Virus record (IMG/VR): IMGVR_UViG_3300010376_000120
Span: 1 to 25,945 of that record
Source of the DNA: a virus
Taxonomy: Duplodnaviria > Caudoviricetes
DNA length: 25,945 nucleotides
Reading direction: 5' to 3' (one strand)
Shown here: positions 17,647-25,639 of the stretch, piece by piece
Layout: each line of letters opens with the position of its first letter
How positions within the stretch are numbered: the stretch's first letter is position 1
Made by a program: the position numbers and the translations under genes
The notes under the pieces: generated by a model
Seen by the model: only the letters and a program-made list of their open reading frames with translations
Told to the model about the DNA's origin: nothing
Database searches by the model: none

Positions 17647-18398
17647 GGTGTGCTCCATTGCTGGTAGGAGTTGATTACTAGCGGGGTGCTGGTGCCGGAG
17701 GTGTCGAACATGACGAGCAGCGGCGTGGGCTCGCCGTTGGCGACGTCGGTGGGGAAGCTGGCTTCTTTGACGCCCTGGTAGTAGATGTCGCAGCCGCCGT
17801 CGGGGCGGCGGACGATCGTCACCGTGTACGTGCCAGCGGTGTGCTCGAGGCAGCCGGATGCGTAGGCGTTGGTGGCACCGTGGGCGTGGTAGAAGATTTC
17901 CCAGCAGCCCGAGTTGGGTGCCTCAGCAGCGTCGATTTCACCGTTGGCTGTCCACGCGCCGGCGCCCTGGACGTTGGAGAAGCCGGACATCCAGAACGCA
18001 GGGTGGCCTGACAGGGTTGCGGTGGTGATGGTGGCCTGGTAGATGCCTGCCTTATAGGCGGCGGGGCTGCCGAGGTCTGCGCATCCGCCTGTGGTGGTGC
18101 CTGTGAGTACGGCGTTGGTTCCTGCGGGGGCGACGTGTCCGCCGCCGCACCACGTGTTGACGGGGTCAGCGTGCCAGGCGGCGTACAGTTCGGCGCCCGT
18201 GTAGTTGGTGATGAGTGCGCCGACCTGGTCTGCGGGGACACCGAGCGGCATCGGCTGCGTTGGTGTCGGCGATGGTGACGGGCTCGGGCTGGGGCAGTCG
18301 AGTGGTGTGAACGCGCCTGTGGTGGTGAAGAACAGGAACGCCGCCACACCGGCAGCGGCGGCGACGAGCAGCCACCTCGAGCGCAGAACCCGGATCAT
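17643..18398 (-). CDS. Exported/anchored GH16-like glycoside hydrolase
   Basis: N-terminal signal/TM, (PS)n linker, HPAFWM...W...GEIDAAE matching the GH16 ExDxxE catalytic motif, then YTVTI and IYYQG. Confidence 0.7.
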   Translation of the reverse strand: MIRVLRSRWLLVAAAAGVAAFLFFTTTGAFTPLDCPSPSPSPSPTPTQPMPLGVPADQVGALITNYTGAELYAAWHADPVNTWCGGGHVAPAGTNAVLTGTTTGGCADLGSPAAYKAGIYQATITTATLSGHPAFWMSGFSNVQGAGAWTANGEIDAAEAPNSGCWEIFYHAHGATNAYASGCLEHTAGTYTVTIVRRPDGGCDIYYQGVKEASFPTDVANGEPTPLLVMFDTSGTSTPLVINSYQQWSTP

Positions 18399-18847
18399 GC
18401 AACCTCCCACAACGTTCGTGCCACTGACAGATACGAGCCGTTGTCACGGGGCCGTGATGGCGTGTCCCACCCTTTACGCGGCGGCCGCTCGGCGACGATG
18501 CGGAATCCGGCTCCGCGGAGGCTGGCACCTGATTCGCCGGCCTGGTTGTAGGTGATGAGACGCCGGTATCCGAGGGCGAACGCGGCCCGCGCAGCTGCGC
18601 CGTACAGCATCGAGTTGGCGTTGGGGTAGCCGTCGGTGACTGTGCGGGTCACTTCAAGGGTGAGCCCGTTGTCGAACGCGGAGGATACGGGGCGGCCGAC
18701 GATGGCGACACCGATAAGGACGTCGTTGTCGGTGGCTACCCCGGTGGAGAATTTGTGGCCGGGTGGCGGTGTGGGGTGGGTGCGGTGCCAGCCGCCGCAG
18801 AACTCGCGGGCGGTTTCCCACGACACTGGGACGAGGCGCAACGTCAT
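18395..18847 (-). CDS. Mom-like GNAT-fold protein (XF1762-like)
   Basis: AREFC..WHRTH..PPGHKFS, GVAIVGRPVS, LEVTRT.TDG..NANSMLYGAAARAA.ALGY.RLITY...ESGASLRGAGF; GGAGG RBS. Confidence 0.8.
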   Translation of the reverse strand: MTLRLVPVSWETAREFCGGWHRTHPTPPPGHKFSTGVATDNDVLIGVAIVGRPVSSAFDNGLTLEVTRTVTDGYPNANSMLYGAAARAAFALGYRRLITYNQAGESGASLRGAGFRIVAERPPRKGWDTPSRPRDNGSYLSVARTLWEVA

Positions 18848-18851
18848 CGGC

Positions 18852-19097
18852 TCACCTCCACACATGGTCGACGATGTGGGGCCAGAGCCAGAAGAACAGG
18901 CCGAACAAGGCGACGGCGATGATGCCGCGGACGATGGTGACGTGGCCGCCGAATGGCTGCTCGAGCCGCCAGAACTGGGCGGACAGGGTGTCGTTGGGCC
19001 GGTGGGTGACGAGCGCCCATGTTTCGGGGACACCGAACATGAGGACGATCCACGCCAGCCAGTAGAGGGACATCCAGTTCCACCGGCCGAACATCAC
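18852..19097 (-). CDS. Trp-rich two-TM membrane protein
   Basis: YWLAWIVLMFGVPETWAL...DTLS...LFFWLWPH; GTGA overlap. Confidence 0.7.
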   Translation of the reverse strand: MMFGRWNWMSLYWLAWIVLMFGVPETWALVTHRPNDTLSAQFWRLEQPFGGHVTIVRGIIAVALFGLFFWLWPHIVDHVWR

Positions 19098-19278: not shown

Positions 19279-19490
19279 TTGGCACCTCGCGCTGCGCTGC
19301 GGAAGGGATAGTCGCGGCGGCAGGTCCTGTGTTCGCGGAGGGGGTGCATACCGCCGCAGTTGTCACACCAGAACGGTTTCGCCGCGACTGATTCGTACAG
19401 TGGCAGGTTCGGGCGGATGTCTACCCGGCGGTTACCTGATCGCATGAATCCGCCGTGCAGTCCGCTGCCCTGCCATTCGTAGCCGCTCAT
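19275..19490 (-). CDS. Small zinc-binding protein
   Basis: WCDNCGGMH...H..C; ATGA overlap. Confidence 0.6.
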   Translation of the reverse strand: MSGYEWQGSGLHGGFMRSGNRRVDIRPNLPLYESVAAKPFWCDNCGGMHPLREHRTCRRDYPFRSAARGAK

Positions 19491-20203
19491 TGGAGCTGGT
19501 TGAGGTCGGCTTGCAGCTGGGTGTAGTTGATGCCGCGGCCGTCACCCTGGGTGAGTTCGCCGGTGAGGACAACCCACGCCTCGTCCATCATCGCGACGTA
19601 GGCGGCCCAGGCGACGGGCTGGAGTTTCCCCCACGTGATGACGGTGGCGCGGTGGGATCCGTATGCGGTGGCGGGTACGCAGTGAAGGCCGACGGTCTGG
19701 GAGTTGAGGGATTCGAGGGTCCAGTCTTCGCCGGCGGCGTATTCGTCTTCCATGCGGGCTGTGACGCGGATGCCGGTGTAGGCGAAGTCGAAGAGTGCGA
19801 TGGCCTGCCGCATTTCGGTCACGCTGGTGTGGTTGACGGGGGCGTAGGCGGAGATTTTCTCGCCGTAGTAGCCGTGTTGCCGGGTGTAGCCGAGGAAGTC
19901 GGAGAGGACGACACCTGTGTCTTGGCCGCCGGTGTAGGCGAGGTAGTAGTCGACGGCCTGGGTGGCGGACGGGGGGGCGTTGACGATGCCGTGGGCGACG
20001 AGGGCTTGTGCTTCGAGTCCGTGTTCGAGGCCTGCTACGCCGCAGTCGCCGTATTGGTCGTTGCCGAGCATGCCCCATGCGTAGTGTTCGCCGGGTACGC
20101 GCACGAAGGCTGGCGGGTCTGCCAGCTGGCCTGCGACGTAGTGGGTGAGGGTTTTGAGCTGGCCGGGGAATTGTGCGGGAAGCCGCCCGTATTTGCGGGT
20201 CAC
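19487..20203 (-). CDS. Papain-like (C1-related) cysteine peptidase
   Basis: Probable GTG start (TRKYGRLPA). MLGNDQYGDCGVAG, GGQDTG, LHCV..TAY, ITWG, DEAW. Confidence 0.7.
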   Translation of the reverse strand: MTRKYGRLPAQFPGQLKTLTHYVAGQLADPPAFVRVPGEHYAWGMLGNDQYGDCGVAGLEHGLEAQALVAHGIVNAPPSATQAVDYYLAYTGGQDTGVVLSDFLGYTRQHGYYGEKISAYAPVNHTSVTEMRQAIALFDFAYTGIRVTARMEDEYAAGEDWTLESLNSQTVGLHCVPATAYGSHRATVITWGKLQPVAWAAYVAMMDEAWVVLTGELTQGDGRGINYTQLQADLNQLQ

Positions 20204-20356
20204 GTTGCCTGCCAGGGGTTGTGGGTTACACGCTCGCTGTGTGTTGCACAAACATGGTAGCGGTTGGCGGGCGCGGGGGCGTGTTACCACCTTGGGGTTT
20301 TGCTGCTGGGGTCTGTCACTGGGTTGTGTTGAGCTCGGGGTGTTGGTTGTTTCGGG

Positions 20357-20592
20357 CCAACTGCTGGGCGACGGAGTCGCCAGCAGTTGGGTCTGGGGGT
20401 TTGGGGGTGGAACCCCCAAAGTCTTAGCGGAACTTCGTTCCGCCAGGGGCAGGGTGTGCCCGGCCGGTCGCTGTGCAGTTTTGGGGTGGAGGCATGCCAA
20501 ACACAATGTGTGGCGTTCGGGATGCCTTTCCGTTACACTCAGGGACGTCGTCTGGTAAGCGGCTATGTTACTCCCAACTGTTGGGGGTAGCA
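20357..20592. repeat. Cluster of inverted repeats in non-coding gap
   Basis: Hairpins at 20357-20390, 20400-20420, 20427-20443 and 20566-20592. Confidence 0.7.
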
Positions 20593-20593
20593 C

Positions 20594-20629
20594 AAGACCC
20601 CCCGCTCGAGGAATCTCGCGGGGGGTCTT
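20594..20629 (-). terminator. Probable terminator hairpin of early operon
   Basis: 12-bp arms AAGACCCCCCGC/GCGGGGGGTCTT, starting 14 nt after the MT-A70 stop; weak U tract. Confidence 0.6.
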
Positions 20630-20642
20630 CGTCTGTGCCAGG

Positions 20643-21272
20643 TCAGTCGTCGAAAAGCACATACTGCCCGTCGTCGAACGGTTCCCGCGGTGGCGGTGGC
20701 GTGTGATGCCGTTCGGTCAGCAGACGGTCAAGGCTGACCCGGATATCCTCACCTCTGGTGGACGGGCACTCATTGCCCACCGTCGTCCACCCATGCCGTT
20801 GCTGCCGGGCGAATACCTCTAGGTACGGGCCTGGGAATCCTCCGCGTTCCACCATTTCGTGGACGTGTTCCGGCTTGCGGCTATGTCCTAGTTCCTGCGT
20901 GAGTATGCCGACTAGGTTGCTTCTGTAGGACTTTCCACGTTTGGCGACGAGGATAGGTTCGGTGCATCCGCGGAACCAATACCCGACGCCGTAATGCAAC
21001 TGATTGCGGCCGTCGAGTTTCACCCACGGCAGGCCCGTGACGTACTGGAATCCCCAGGCGTCGACCACTTGCAGTGCATCGGGCACGAATGGCCAGGTTG
21101 TCCATAGGAACAACACTGACTCGTCGGTGGCGAGGTCGCCGATAGGCAGTGCGCACAACTCTTTGGTGGTGAGCGGGTTATATTCAGCGTCCGAGTAGCC
21201 AGACAGTTTGTGATGGCGTGAGGTCTTCTCATACGCCCAGGGTGGGTCAGCGACAATGGTCCCGAACGTCAT
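20643..21272 (-). CDS. MT-A70 family adenine methyltransferase
   Basis: IVADPPW, LFLWTT, AWGFQY, WVK, G.GYWFRGCTEPILVA, HSRKPE, YLEVFAR...GW..VGNE. Confidence 0.93.
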   Translation of the reverse strand: MTFGTIVADPPWAYEKTSRHHKLSGYSDAEYNPLTTKELCALPIGDLATDESVLFLWTTWPFVPDALQVVDAWGFQYVTGLPWVKLDGRNQLHYGVGYWFRGCTEPILVAKRGKSYRSNLVGILTQELGHSRKPEHVHEMVERGGFPGPYLEVFARQQRHGWTTVGNECPSTRGEDIRVSLDRLLTERHHTPPPPREPFDDGQYVLFDD

Positions 21273-22053: not shown

Positions 22054-22196
22054 TGGAACGCCCAGTCGTCGGAGTCGTCGTCGTCCACGTCCACATGGCA
22101 ATGGCACATGCAGGCGTCTTCGCGGACGTAGTCGTCACGGTCGGGGCAGTCCTGGCAGCGGCCCCACTGACACGCCAGGGACAGTTCCTCAGTCAC
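22050..22196 (-). CDS. Small Cys-rich acidic protein
   Basis: GGAGG RBS; LSLACQWGRCQDC...CMCHCH. Confidence 0.6.
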   Translation of the reverse strand: MTEELSLACQWGRCQDCPDRDDYVREDACMCHCHVDVDDDDSDDWAFQ

Positions 22197-23091
22197 CGGA
22201 TGCCTCCTCGTGGTCGAGTAGCCGGTCAAGCGCGGCCCGGTCCTTACACCCCGCCAGCGCTGCTTTGACCCGCACACCTTCCGCGGCGGTGAGGTCGTTG
22301 GTCGACCCGATCGTGCCGGTGCGTCCGGCGAGCTGGGCGGTTATCTGGAGTCGTGCGTCCCTCCACTGGTCGCCGGGGTAGCCGAGCCGTCCGAGGTGCA
22401 TGACGATGGCCTGGGCGGTGTCCTGCGCCGGCCGTGGCCTGGGCAGGGGCTGGGGGGGATCGGCGTACCACGGGTCGTCGTCGGGGGTCTGGTCGAGCCG
22501 GTCAGCTTTCCTGTCCTGCGCCTGCGTGTCCTTGGCGAGCCGGTTGTGTTCGCGTAGCTGCGCGTCGGTCATCTGCCCCGTGGCGGCGAGTTCGGCGTCG
22601 GTGGTCCGCGACCGGCTTACCGACCCGTCGGTGTTCCGCGGCAACTCGTCCTTGCTGCGTGGTGGTGGCTTCTGCCTGCCCGGCTTCGCGCCCTGTTCCG
22701 CGGCGCGGCCGTCGTCGTCTTCGTCGGCGACAATCCCTGTCACCGCGGCAAGGCAGTACCGGCGGGCGTAGGTGATCGCCGACCCGAGTTGCTGCGGACT
22801 GCCGGTGCCGAGGGGGTATTCGCCGTCGATGCTGGTTCCCGAGCTCGCGTGGCGCAGCGAGTAGAAGAGCACGAACTCGCGGACGTCGGGGGGGAAACGG
22901 AGCAGCGTCGGCCGGGTGGTCCACGCCAGGCCGCGTTTCGACATGAGGGGGAACAGTTCCCGGCAGATGTCGGCCAGGTCGGCGTATTTGGTGGGCCTGC
23001 CGCCGGCGTTGCCTGTGGTGGCTTTGGTGATGACGGGCAGGACGCCTTGCAGGTCGGCGAGAGCATCGTCAACGTTCTTAAAGTCGCTCAT
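22189..23091 (-). CDS. erf: ERF family single-strand annealing protein
   Basis: KYADLADI and QQLGSAITYARRY.L.A.TGIVADEDDDG signature. Confidence 0.93.
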   Translation of the reverse strand: MSDFKNVDDALADLQGVLPVITKATTGNAGGRPTKYADLADICRELFPLMSKRGLAWTTRPTLLRFPPDVREFVLFYSLRHASSGTSIDGEYPLGTGSPQQLGSAITYARRYCLAAVTGIVADEDDDGRAAEQGAKPGRQKPPPRSKDELPRNTDGSVSRSRTTDAELAATGQMTDAQLREHNRLAKDTQAQDRKADRLDQTPDDDPWYADPPQPLPRPRPAQDTAQAIVMHLGRLGYPGDQWRDARLQITAQLAGRTGTIGSTNDLTAAEGVRVKAALAGCKDRAALDRLLDHEEASGD

Positions 23092-23696
23092 ATGAATGTC
23101 TGCGCCCCGTTCCGGTCTAGTTCGTCAAGCCACCCGAGTAGCCGTGGCAGGTTTTTGTCGGGGCCGTAACGCAGGTATCCGCCGTCGGCGGAGTCGCAGC
23201 CCATGCCGTGTGCCTGGCGGATGCGGGTGAGGCTGTTGCACCGGCCCCAGTGGACGTGTTTGCCGCGGGCGCGTGCCTGACGGGTGTAGTCGGCTGCGAT
23301 GACACCCCATTTGAATTCCATGCTGCCGGCGATGAACAGGACGTCGAAGTCGTCCCACGGGAGCCGGCAGTCGTCCTGGAGTGCGAGCGCTGCGGGGTAT
23401 CCCATTCGCCGGATGTGGTAAAGCCACGGCCGGGACAGGCGCAATGTGGCGGCCATGTCGAATGGGACGTCGGGGGCGACAGCGAATGCGCATGTCTGGG
23501 CGTAGGGGCGGTAGGAGGCAAGCCACGCTTCGTAGCGGAGGGGGCCGGGCCAGCCTTTGCCGAACCGTCCGTTGTCAGCGCACCATGGTGCGCCGGGGGG
23601 AATTGTGTTTCCCTGCCCTGGGGTGATGATGCAGCCGATACGTCCGGCGGACATGTGGTCACGCGCCGCTTTCACGGGGTTGGCGTAGTACAGCAC
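23088..23696 (-). CDS. Short TGT/DpdA-like base-exchange transglycosylase
   Basis: WCADNGRF (cf. DSGGF), VAPDVPFD, ALQD, LFIAGS, HVHWG (cf. HxLG), CDSADG (cf. DS.DSS). Overlaps a YhhQ-like gene. Confidence 0.7.
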   Translation of the reverse strand: MLYYANPVKAARDHMSAGRIGCIITPGQGNTIPPGAPWCADNGRFGKGWPGPLRYEAWLASYRPYAQTCAFAVAPDVPFDMAATLRLSRPWLYHIRRMGYPAALALQDDCRLPWDDFDVLFIAGSMEFKWGVIAADYTRQARARGKHVHWGRCNSLTRIRQAHGMGCDSADGGYLRYGPDKNLPRLLGWLDELDRNGAQTFI

Positions 23697-24210
23697 GGCG
23701 TATCACCACCCCGAGCGCGACGACACCGGCGGTGACGTATGCCTTGCCGAGGAGCTGACCGCCGAACGTGGCCGTGGTGACGGGGAACCCGGCGAGAGTG
23801 AGGAACAGGAACGTGTCCGCGGCGATGCCGGTCGTGTTCGCAGCGCCGACAACCAGGGACCAGCGGCCGGTTCCCCAGCCGGTCCGGCGGCGCAGCGGCG
23901 TGTACACGGCGAACTCGAGGGATTCGCCGATGAGGAATGTGGCACCGGACGCGAACGCGATCTGGTGGCTGGATGTGGCATACGAGAGGGCAGCTCCGGC
24001 TGTGATCGCGGCGAGGACCGCCCAGCGGCCTAGTGCGTCCTGGAGGAAGTCGCGGGTCATGATCGCGCCGCCTGCGGCGAACGTTCCGGCGGTGGTGAGA
24101 TAGCCGAACCCGGCGGCGATGAGCCCGTATCGGGTGGTGAGCCAGTTCGCCGCCCAGATCGAGGTGATGTAGGTGGCGAGGAGTGCGATGCCGGTGGTGC
24201 GTCTAGTCAT
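23659..24210 (-). CDS. yhhQ: Vut/YhhQ family queuosine-precursor transporter
   Basis: Multi-TM protein: IWAANWL, AGTF.AG...RDFLQ..LG, IAFAS..TFLIGESLEFAVYTPLR, DTFLFL.LAG, GQLLGK. Confidence 0.85.
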   Translation of the reverse strand: MTRRTTGIALLATYITSIWAANWLTTRYGLIAAGFGYLTTAGTFAAGGAIMTRDFLQDALGRWAVLAAITAGAALSYATSSHQIAFASGATFLIGESLEFAVYTPLRRRTGWGTGRWSLVVGAANTTGIAADTFLFLTLAGFPVTTATFGGQLLGKAYVTAGVVALGVVIRRAVLRQPRESGA

Positions 24211-24355
24211 CGTCGTCGTCCTTGTCCTGGACGAAGATCGCCCACGCGTAGGGGGTGTACAGCTGGCAGGCTGTGCAGTAGAACCCGTCGGGTTCGGTTT
24301 CGACGTCGCCGTAACAGTCACGGCACACGGGGATGTCGCGGACGCGGGCGGTCAC
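24203..24355 (-). CDS. Small zinc-ribbon protein
   Basis: CRDC...YCTAC with acidic tail; GTGA overlap. Confidence 0.6.
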   Translation of the reverse strand: MTARVRDIPVCRDCYGDVETEPDGFYCTACQLYTPYAWAIFVQDKDDDDD

Positions 24356-24660
24356 CGGTCTTCGTCTTCGGTTGCGTGGCGGAGGTTCGACCATTCGGAG
24401 TGGGCGTACTGGGCGAGTATCCTGCGGTGTTCGGCGCGGATCTGTGCTTCCTGGGCGCGGCGCAGAATGTTCGCCTGCACGTCGGGGTCGGTGCGCCGGG
24501 CGAGCCGGGTTTCGCGTCGGTGCAGCCAGCCGAGCCAGGGCAGGGTGCCGATGAGGAGGAGTCCTTGCGGCTGCCCGGCTGCGGTGAGGAGGATTGCAAC
24601 GGCGAATGCGATCCACGCGCCGGCGTGGTAGACGAACGCCGCGGCCCGGTGGCCGTTCAT
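24352..24660 (-). CDS. Two-TM membrane protein
   Basis: MNGHRAAAFVYHAGAWIAFAVAILL...; ATGA overlap. Confidence 0.6.
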   Translation of the reverse strand: MNGHRAAAFVYHAGAWIAFAVAILLTAAGQPQGLLLIGTLPWLGWLHRRETRLARRTDPDVQANILRRAQEAQIRAEHRRILAQYAHSEWSNLRHATEDEDR

Positions 24661-24821
24661 GGCCTGCGTCCTTCGTCGATGTGCCAGGGGCAGCCCCGTA
24701 CCCAGTGGGTGCGGACCCACCGGGGGGGGCGGGTGGAGTGCTGGTTGACTGGCTGGGAGTAATGCCAGGTGCATATGCAGTTGCGGGGGATGTCGCGGGT
24801 TGCGGTGTCGTCGCGGGTCAT
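24657..24821 (-). CDS. Small Cys/His protein
   Basis: RDIPRNCICTWH...WVR...CPWH; ATGA overlaps at both ends. Confidence 0.6.
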   Translation of the reverse strand: MTRDDTATRDIPRNCICTWHYSQPVNQHSTRPPRWVRTHWVRGCPWHIDEGRRP

Positions 24822-25639
24822 GTCATGCACCACCCGTTGTCGCAATGGACGTCGTCGTCGGTTCCTGCAAGGGTGAGCTGGCCCGGATGCCCGATCGGCG
24901 CTTCGAGGAGCGGCCGGGCGAACCTGGTCAGATAGACGTGGTCTTTGCCCAGGGCGTCGCGGCGCTCGTTTAGCAGCGCCTCAAGTTCGGCAGCCTTGTA
25001 AAACAGTTCGGGTTCGTTGCGCTGCATGTACGCCCACGTGTCAGGGCGGTGGAACGGGCAGAAGTAGCAGGCTGATTTGCCTGGAACTGGGAGGCCTGCG
25101 GCGCGGATGACGTCCATGCAGTCGGTGCGCCGCAGGCGCAGGTCTAGCAGCGGGTAGACAACGTTTTCGTAGGGCTCTACCTTGCGGTTATTGGCGCGGT
25201 GGAGTTCGTCGACGCTGATGCCAACGGCGACGGTGGCGGGGTTGTCCGCACTGGCACCGTGTTCCTTGAGCCACTTCCCGATCACCTTGATTTTGAAATG
25301 TGAGGTGCAATTGCGGGTTCCGGGTGCGCCGTTGTCCATGCGGACGGGGATGGGAAGTGACCGGGAACCTTCGCGGGTGAGGCGGCCGTACAGGGTTTCG
25401 ACTCCGACGAACTGGCCGCGGACGTTCACCTTTTGCAGTTCATGGATGGTGATGCCGTGCGCCTGGGCGTAGGGCACCGCGATTTCGCGGAGGTAGCGGA
25501 GAGTGGCGGGGTGTTCGGAGTCGTCGCCGACGTTGGCGAATAGGAATGTCTGATAGTCGATGCGGCCGGTGGCTGCGAGGACGAGCATGGCTGTGGTCTG
25601 GACGCCGCCGCCGTGGGAGACGACTCGAAGCGGGTTCAT
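24818..25639 (-). CDS. PAPS-reductase-like PP-loop (adenine nucleotide alpha hydrolase) protein
   Basis: VVSHGGGVQTTAM, FANVG..E, RNCT..FKI, GISVDE..R, YPL, KSACYFCPF. Start taken at ATG 25639 rather than 25942. Confidence 0.85.
   Translation of the reverse strand: MNPLRVVSHGGGVQTTAMLVLAATGRIDYQTFLFANVGDDSEHPATLRYLREIAVPYAQAHGITIHELQKVNVRGQFVGVETLYGRLTREGSRSLPIPVRMDNGAPGTRNCTSHFKIKVIGKWLKEHGASADNPATVAVGISVDELHRANNRKVEPYENVVYPLLDLRLRRTDCMDVIRAAGLPVPGKSACYFCPFHRPDTWAYMQRNEPELFYKAAELEALLNERRDALGKDHVYLTRFARPLLEAPIGHPGQLTLAGTDDDVHCDNGWCMT

Follow-up and report, generated by a model that had tools for sequence, protein, structure and literature searches.

How can a phage that seems equipped to exchange bases in its DNA do so when no genes for making the incoming base are in view? 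The question is posed by a soil-type phage, the virus record IMGVR_UViG_3300010376_000120 (Duplodnaviria; Caudoviricetes), a linear contig of 25,945 bases with 66% GC and an estimated completeness of 71%, which we analysed whole and refer to as the window. Here, a gene for a YhhQ-like membrane transporter overlaps a gene for a 202-residue protein resembling tRNA-guanine transglycosylases (TGTs) and DpdA enzymes. The original prediction, made from the letters of the DNA, took the pair for a minimal module that scavenges a precursor and inserts it into DNA. We followed it up with profile comparison, structure prediction and an analysis of related loci, and consider it probable that the cassette takes in a 7-deazaguanine (preQ0 or preQ1) and puts it in place of guanine in the DNA of the phage.

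The compact enzyme and its link to DpdA1

The enzyme gene starts with GTG, and its product carries the motifs first picked out by eye as DNGRF, PDV, QD, HVHWG and DSADG (DNG at 41, PDV at 75, QD at 107–108, HWG at 149 and DSADG at 168). These had been called degenerate; they turn out instead to be the near-invariant norm of the enzyme's family. The protein matches PHROG 15826 (phrog_15826, function unknown) at E 1e-72. The family is large: 1,446 candidates yielded 803 proteins at the 90% level, and at the 50% identity level there are 2,127 clusters (E ≤ 0.001), although members occur in only 27 of 50,697 phage records searched by tblastn. Several GenBank records of family members are already labelled ‘DpdA-like tRNA-guanine transglycosylase’. 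Pfam (including its TGT family, PF01702), NCBIfam and PADLOC profiles did not match the window enzyme; the PADLOC DpdA profile also left three homologues unmatched, and it matched the DpdA of an actinobacterial locus, used as control (L324), at E 9e-183.

A profile of 110 compact proteins aligned with a profile of 123 DpdA1-type sequences at an hhalign probability of 97.2% (E 3.2e-11, 133 columns), against at most 0.74% in 20 column-shuffled controls. As far as sequence comparison goes, this link settles the enzyme's family as the TGT/DpdA superfamily. In the alignment, D41, D76, Q107, H149 and D171 of the enzyme fall on D63, D105, H131, H187 and D206 of phiG7 DpdA; these five residues are kept in 105–107 of 107 sequences (98–100%), and the six site residues, G124 included, are intact together in 98 of 105. 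The DpdA1-type profile aligned weakly with tRNA TGT (8.8%, E 0.004), and the register from the enzyme to TGT is only indirect; along this path phiG7 D63, D105, H187 and D206 fall on E. coli D89, D143, Y242 and D264, with H131 one residue off Q187. Alignments by hhalign with the single sequences Sonali gp87, HVTV1_69 and E. coli Tgt were not significant.

The AlphaFold2 model of the enzyme, built from 107 sequences, has a mean predicted local distance difference test score of 96.6 and eight strands alternating with helices. It ends with one helix after strand 8 and has no predicted C-terminal zinc-binding part, and we are confident that the modelled fold is a bare TIM barrel. The six site residues follow predicted strands 3–8 (38–40, 69–73, 102–106, 119–122, 147–150 and 169–171, respectively). 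A TGT barrel with aligned catalytic Asp residues had been expected, and the model provides the barrel while the Asp residues are in register with DpdA1. Among 48,161 solved chains, the best structural match was Cap10 (9ntn; Z 14.2, root-mean-square deviation 3.1, 194 residues aligned); TGT-family chains spanned Z 12.7–14.2 (bacterial TGT 13.6, archaeal TGT 13.5, DpdA 7ui4 12.8), and the best named match among viral models was a phage ‘queuine tRNA-ribosyltransferase’ (E 9e-6). The predicted fold alone identifies a barrel, not which family of barrels. Weak EAL-domain matches in 15 of 60 homologues were taken as generic barrel similarity, and Prod 1, the sole match from sequence searches of solved structures, was judged implausible.

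The structural match raises a different role. Cap10 of type IV CBASS is a 325-residue chain that binds a deazaguanylated CD-NTase (10.1101/2025.04.06.647259), and its catalytic His–Asp pair (H226/D248) is spaced 22 residues apart, as in the compact enzyme. The phage protein might accordingly be a deazaguanine binder or transferase directed against deazaguanylation defences (type IV CBASS, QatABCD) and not a DNA modifier. However, the Cap10 score ties with those of five other chains, and the importer or queC/D/E supply genes found beside relatives fit consumption of a free base, not a sponge. Furthermore, neither the window nor a set of 113 neighbour proteins from selected loci contains anything named as part of a Cap10-type operon (CD-NTase, Cap9), and there is no PADLOC match. 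We regard this explanation as the least probable of those considered, and as very improbable in itself.

Sequence comparisons place phrog_15826 as a separate, large and apparently unassayed branch outside both DpdA1 and DpdA4. Membership of DpdA1 was rejected for the window enzyme, which matches neither phrog_887 (E ≤ 0.01) nor the DpdA1-type profile (E ≤ 0.05); some of its homologues match the latter at E 1e-9. With the DpdA1 of CAjan, Rosebush and 9g (phrog_887, with de novo preQ0 synthesis), it shares clear profile homology and the catalytic register. In contrast to those enzymes of about 300 residues, the compact proteins have about 200–220 (medians 296 and 222 in the fetched sets) and carry DNG, a strand-5 Gln and H-x-G-R-x-N where DpdA1 has DSG, His and H-x-x-G; DNG occurs in 99 and the Gln in 106 of 107 family members, compared with DSG and a strand-5 His in phiG7 DpdA. 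A family-specific conserved Lys129 and the H-x-G-R-x-N motif line the active site of the model. DpdA4 (DUF6610) was the nearest named family by Atlas language-model features (0.90) and was likewise rejected: the window enzyme has no PF20314 match and no significant alignment with the DpdA4 of Halovirus HVTV-1 (gp69, HVTV1_69), also a divergent TGT-like viral enzyme, which itself scores 190.8 bits against PF20314. No DUF6610 protein was found in the 301 actinobacterial genomes searched. The tblastn search with the window enzyme returned no nt-1 (DpdA2) or phiST/Campylobacter (DpdA3) phage, and Sonali gp87 was the sole protein returned when viral relatives of it were sought. The family also includes apparent long forms of 514–863 residues with C-terminal extensions (L084 8001–10589, L090 8001–10067, L046 7926–9554 and L141 8001–9542; L numbers denote fetched loci), the first with a weak PD-(D/E)XK nuclease match (E 5e-4). 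The expectation of a poorly characterised subfamily holds, with a large family in a PHROG of unknown function that is not in the published DpdA tables examined.

The transporter and the supply of precursor

The overlap of 38 nucleotides between the two genes is confirmed. The longest open frame of the transporter starts at GTG 24321. Its product exceeds the Pfam Vut_1 (PF02592) cut-off narrowly (28.4 versus 27.2 bits) and does not reach the NCBIfam equivalogs for preQ0/preQ1 transporters (20.8 bits against 252 for NF008406 and 50.95 for TIGR00697). Vut_1 is matched by 118 of 119 aligned homologues (E ≤ 0.001), and, compared by hhalign with E. coli YhhQ, the transporter profile scores 95.7% (E 9e-9, 123 columns), although the family is without one loop of roughly 20 residues present in that protein. 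Residues N22, R53, D132, F136 and K156 are invariant in the family. By these comparisons the transporter represents a short, divergent subfamily of QPTR/YhhQ.

Transporter and enzyme keep company far beyond chance. Relatives of the transporter occur in 16 of the 50,697 phage records, in 15 of them with a compact enzyme within about 350 nucleotides; in the remaining record a DpdA-type gene lies two genes off. We assembled 319 loci, five of them from annotated phages and the others the top 80 from every one of four scans (of 474, 236, 509 and 441 confirmed stretches; six loci repeated), a set that leans to close relatives of the window enzyme. Clustering at 90% identity gave 201 clusters, of which 62 with short flanks were dropped, leaving 139. 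Counting YhhQ within 1.5 kb of the enzyme and queC/D/E anywhere in the fetched DNA, we find YhhQ in 94 of the 139 (directly upstream in 77), which bears out the proposed linkage of homologues to YhhQ, and queC/D/E in eight, as is also the case beside DpdA1. The two never occur together (Fisher p 8e-5, kinship ignored); at 70% identity the counts are 44, 4 and 0 of 65 (p 0.009, kinship ignored). Among synthesis genes QueC is the most often adjacent. Five loci (L022, L026, L053, L073 and L286) have the compact gene immediately next to queC/E/D, and their fetched DNA holds no gene of DpdA1 type.

In a quick tree with 105 rows, the eight rows labelled ‘make’ require seven changes, at least three of them forced by well-supported branches, and the switch between import and make therefore happened more than once. 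Relatives, on this pattern, either import or make the precursor. Adjacent transporter and enzyme genes overlap in 121 of 132 raw loci, with peaks at 41, 32 and 4 nucleotides. Scavenging in place of synthesis, as originally proposed, is in keeping with the mutual exclusion of YhhQ and queC/D/E (0 of 8) and with the host data described below.

QueF-like genes occur in 18 of the 139 loci, 14 of these with YhhQ. They are of two tiny T-fold kinds, one of about 110 residues with a Pfam QueF match and one of about 84 residues (phrog_37496) that is QueF-like by eye only; two of the proteins exceed the Pfam QueF cut-off. These genes adjoin the enzyme and often separate it from the transporter (L003 4667–4996, L021 7702–8034, L081 550–804). 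No site residue was found to distinguish the import, import-plus-QueF and make groups.

The same short YhhQ subfamily (E about 1e-60) is present in three of four fetched actinobacterial dpd DNA-modification loci (L323–L326), which were picked for QueC and Vut_1 matches on one contig, a choice that establishes the link but is no measure of its frequency. These loci combine DpdA with queC/E/D, and one (L324 2572–10138) also has DpdB and a likely FolE2-type gene. Beside full synthesis genes the short YhhQ might import or export. Bacterial DpdA shares the catalytic Asp set of the compact enzyme; it has about 400 residues and was assayed with DpdB and ATP, whereas no DpdB-like gene was seen beside the 202-residue enzyme.

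Target, base and hosts

In the proposed mechanism, the YhhQ-family protein would import a 7-deazaguanine base, probably preQ0 and possibly preQ1, the compact enzyme would swap it for guanine in phage DNA after replication, and the modified DNA would blunt host restriction. Salmonella DpdA uses Asp95 as acid/base, Asp130 and His181 to read the base, Phe99 to stack and Asp256 as nucleophile (PMC10164549). By analogy, D171 would displace guanine through a covalent DNA intermediate, D41 would act as general acid/base, D76 and Q107 would read the Watson–Crick edge and F45 would stack on the base. As synthesis genes are not in view, how far the DNA is modified would be set by the precursor that the host or the surroundings supply. 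Profiles for QueC, QueD, QueE, both QueF-like types and FolE found no match in six frames of the window (E ≤ 0.05), in agreement with the earlier impression that folE, queD, queE and queC are missing from view.

DNA is favoured as the target on sequence grounds, because of the DpdA1 link, the DNA-acting neighbours and the lack of tRNA genes. Neighbours in relatives include DNA methyltransferases, Mom, primase, helicase and polymerase; there are no tRNA genes in the window and calls in 4 of 52 related loci (one tRNA-Asn GTT). The enzyme could instead act on tRNA or another RNA, and so supply deazaguanine marks to hosts that themselves lack tgt. In this direction point Gln107 and the 22-residue H149–D171 spacing, which resemble tRNA TGT, and a survey of 50 actinomycete genomes (drafts, selected from 80 genome loci), none of which had a tRNA TGT over the cut-off, compared with 43 of 81 in a phylum-wide sample. 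The zinc-binding C-terminal part, which serves tRNA docking, is a defining feature of tRNA-guanine transglycosylases, and in the model nothing follows the last barrel helix that could form it. The enzyme also has no PF01702 match, its closest profile is that of the DNA-acting DpdA1, and its relatives show no link to tRNA genes. We consider an RNA target quite unlikely, and give RNA and deazaguanylated defence proteins, taken together, a small chance.

The window enzyme lies in a well-supported set of 22 tree rows, the named ones coming from Streptomyces, Kitasatospora, Micromonospora and their relatives, and an actinomycete host is therefore likely. Among the 50 host genomes, QueC was found in 10 and Vut_1 in 19. 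The transporter stands beside the enzyme in 15, and QueC is absent from 10 of these, which fits import.

Several orphan compact enzymes are found in Streptomyces mobile elements next to Mom and PAPS-reductase-like (phosphoadenosine-phosphosulfate-reductase-like) genes; the order in L133 6525–11648 is PAPS-like, enzyme, unknown, Mom, PAPS-like. This locus and two others from Streptomyces and Kitasatospora (L113, L087) appear to be conjugative elements. Most hosts of the orphan enzymes in such elements are without QueC, Vut_1 and tRNA TGT. Site residues are intact in 18 of the 20 orphan rows of the tree set.

Several observations weigh against import and exchange on DNA. The compact profile aligned directly with a 31-sequence tRNA TGT profile was not significant (probability 0.2%); PdxJ (14.0), RPE (13.8) and pyruvate kinase (13.6) tie with TGT chains in fold match, and unrelated TIM barrels head the Foldseek list on PDB, by which TGT is not excluded. 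The window enzyme departs from the family consensus at G109D, M150W, V153C and T173G, changes shared in part by a small sub-branch (P0002 and P0004–P0006); lying near the site, they could alter base or sequence preference. The transporter has Glu at position 99, where 95% of homologues have Asp. QPTR substrates vary, from preQ0 and preQ1 for the E. coli member to queuine for the Chlamydia member (PMC11130926), and 33 of the 139 loci have no supply gene nearby. Neither QueC nor Vut_1 is present in 28 of the 50 hosts, all 28 among the 35 without an adjacent transporter. Four examined phages (Sonali, L067, R29Z and phiG7) carry both the compact gene and DpdA1, and about 29% of the genome, from the completeness estimate, lies outside the contig. 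The published record adds that DpdA-only Orion is unmodified on M. smegmatis and that phage 7-11 has 0.02% dADG (the 2′-deoxynucleoside of 7-amido-7-deazaguanine; both PMC6884629), that MED16 has 0.13% dADG without noticeable protection from restriction (PMC8306585), and that deletion of yhhQ had no effect in CAjan, which makes its own preQ0 (PMC7544227).

The unmodified or trace-level phages, and the hosts with no precursor source, could be read to mean that the cassette serves DNA modification while being mostly idle or active at trace level, with a precursor that is rare or confined to occasional hosts and little protection. The cluster P mycobacteriophages agree with this. Brusacoram matches GreaseLightnin at 96–99% on both sides of the cassette region and is without 1,638 bases, a stretch that takes in the enzyme, two small genes and the greater part of the transporter, while keeping a 5′ remnant of the transporter gene (L365 1315–1578 versus L005 4487–6305). 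The cassette region is dispensable in these phages, which share an isolation host. The compact gene is also split in two in the Seuratvirus phiG7, beside an intact DpdA and next to DNA polymerase, and in SHIN8. Intact site residues in 98 of 105 sequences and an overlap kept in 121 of 132 loci nevertheless point to selection, and full 7-deazapurine pathways, found mainly in Actinomycetota, offer a plausible source in soil (10.64898/2026.04.15.718813). An idle cassette is in our view unlikely, although it is the strongest of the alternatives. As an observation in its own right, near-identical cluster P phages that carry or lack the cassette form a natural pair on M. smegmatis; Thespis is another that lacks it.

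Co-occurrence with DpdA1 (L358 2638–5351, L359 2375–5303, L001 5001–8878 and L067) allows a second motif, another base or redundancy. It is one of the grounds for a further alternative, in which import and exchange on DNA take place with another base (7-carboxy-7-deazaguanine (CDG), 7-amido-7-deazaguanine (ADG), queuine or other purine) or the enzyme is a second DpdA with its own motif. The others are Gln107 in place of the DpdA1 His, the family-specific Lys129 and H-x-G-R-x-N at the site, the Chlamydia QPTR that transports queuine only, and singleton DpdA phages that gave dADG. The supply genes speak for preQ0, since QueC, the synthesis gene most frequently found beside the enzyme, makes it, and it is the substrate of the QueF-like proteins encoded in 14 YhhQ loci; site residues are, moreover, alike in the import, import-plus-QueF and make groups. 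We judge this alternative, too, to be unlikely, and prefer uptake of preQ0 or preQ1 for exchange with guanine in phage DNA.

The gene run and its place among known systems

Transporter and enzyme lie in a run of overlapping minus-strand genes that extends from a PAPS-reductase-like gene through small open reading frames (ORFs) to an ERF gene (Table 1). At third codon positions the two genes of the pair have GC contents of 0.78 and 0.82, as in coding genes here (capsid 0.91). The coupling of enzyme to ERF noted from the letters is confirmed, stop and start sharing ATGA at 23088–23091, and PF04404 supports the ERF call. ERF was rejected as part of the module, with nine ERF matches in 319 loci, those listed 2–6.6 kb away. 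We likewise rejected the idea that the PAPS-reductase-like gene completes a fixed module of three, as it occurs in only 14 of 139 loci; a PAPS-like gene lies directly upstream of the enzyme in a group of Streptomyces elements. In the window it stands three genes upstream of the transporter in the same coupled run and could be a separate DNA-modification enzyme. With the MT-A70 and Mom-like genes, the contig thus holds four candidate DNA-modification functions. The ORF at 19487–20662 has Cys and His motifs that, judged by eye, we take to be reminiscent of a cysteine protease.

Table 1 Features of the window
Feature	Position	Strand	Basis
Compact DpdA/TGT-like transglycosylase (putative), 202 residues, phrog_15826	23088..23696	−	Profile match; predicted bare (β/α)8 barrel
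Short YhhQ/QPTR (Vut_1) membrane transporter, 183 residues from ATG 24210	23659..24210	−	Pfam, hhalign
Overlap of transporter end and enzyme start, 38 nucleotides	23659..23696	−	ORF coordinates
ERF single-stranded-DNA-annealing protein, downstream of enzyme	22189..23091	−	PF04404 E 6e-14
PAPS-reductase-like (SspD-like) gene	24818..25639	−	phrog_424; PADLOC SspD E 5e-16
Small ORF, 102 residues, hydrophobic N-terminal half, upstream of transporter	24352–24660	−	Overlap-coupled
Small ORF, 50 residues, two CxxC, directly upstream of transporter	24203–24355	−	Overlap-coupled
MT-A70 type DNA methyltransferase	20643–21272	−	Profile match
Mom-like gene	18395–19033	−	Profile match
ORF, C-terminal part matches phrog_19005 (function unknown)	19487–20662	−	
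Portal, Clp-type protease, capsid, major tail and tape-measure genes		−	Pfam/PHROG matches

On the layout the original prediction went too far: it is not new. PMC6884629 (2019) defines a DpdA-only phage group, proposes that the precursor comes from the host or from outside, mentions that some of the phages have YhhQ, and describes CDKM15, eHP-6 and phiLM21 as having DpdA and YhhQ alone. Like the window, the DpdA-only phages have a DpdA-type gene (three with YhhQ) and no preQ0 synthesis genes, in contrast to DpdA1 phages, which have them; none of the group was returned by tblastn of the window enzyme. Nor is the very short enzyme, which does have 202 residues, unique in size: Pam5 gp30, of the Salmonella phage 7-11/SEN1 singleton group, has 230. 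The Pam5 protein shares the DNG and PD motifs and lies near the same short YhhQ, but aligns weakly over its full length (44%, E 2e-4) and belongs to phrog_887. Closest are the SEA-PHAGES ‘DpdA-like’ proteins of cluster P GreaseLightnin and Ksquared, Arthrobacter Aoka and Sonali (gp81) and Rhodococcus ReqiPine5 (gp03), which belong to the same family at 50–56% identity. GreaseLightnin and ReqiPine5 have the order YhhQ then enzyme, as does Aoka with a QueF-like gene between; the name is an annotation label only, and the upstream transporter is mostly called hypothetical or membrane protein. Layout, uptake hypothesis and label are thus known, and the enzyme branch is separate.

DpdA3 and DpdA4 have since been added (10.1101/2023.04.13.536721). 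The supplements of PMC6884629 do not list ReqiPine5, Ksquared, StevieRay, Majeke or R6L, and none of six phages of the enzyme family is in the journal-version supplement on DpdA3 and DpdA4, a table limited to viruses with its new genes. DpdA is not mentioned in the accessible part of PMC13313380. We found no study or assay of the phrog_15826 subfamily in a literature in which subscription papers were thinly covered, so a description may exist. Other transporter families also carry preQ0 and preQ1 (PMC11130926). Host glycosylases attack deazaguanine-modified phages (10.1101/2025.10.29.685425), and the mark therefore has a cost.

The largest group in PMC6884629, DpdA without synthesis genes, was left there with an open role. 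For this question phrog_15826 offers a clean test, because importer and synthesis genes replace each other, among the actinomycete hosts surveyed most lack QueC and all lack tRNA TGT, and cluster P pairs exist. We tentatively propose, at less than even confidence for the whole, that phrog_15826 forms a fifth and minimal subfamily of phage DpdA, with far more members in metagenomes than its 27 records from cultured phages would lead one to expect, and that its importer lets phages modify DNA in hosts devoid of queuosine metabolism by means of base that nearby microbes release. It would then be the community's chemistry that turns on protection from restriction, together with exposure to deazaguanine-targeting glycosylases. 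Were this confirmed, the modification of phage DNA would hinge on a metabolite that microbes share, and a stand-alone DNA base-exchange enzyme of 200 residues would be a handy labelling tool.

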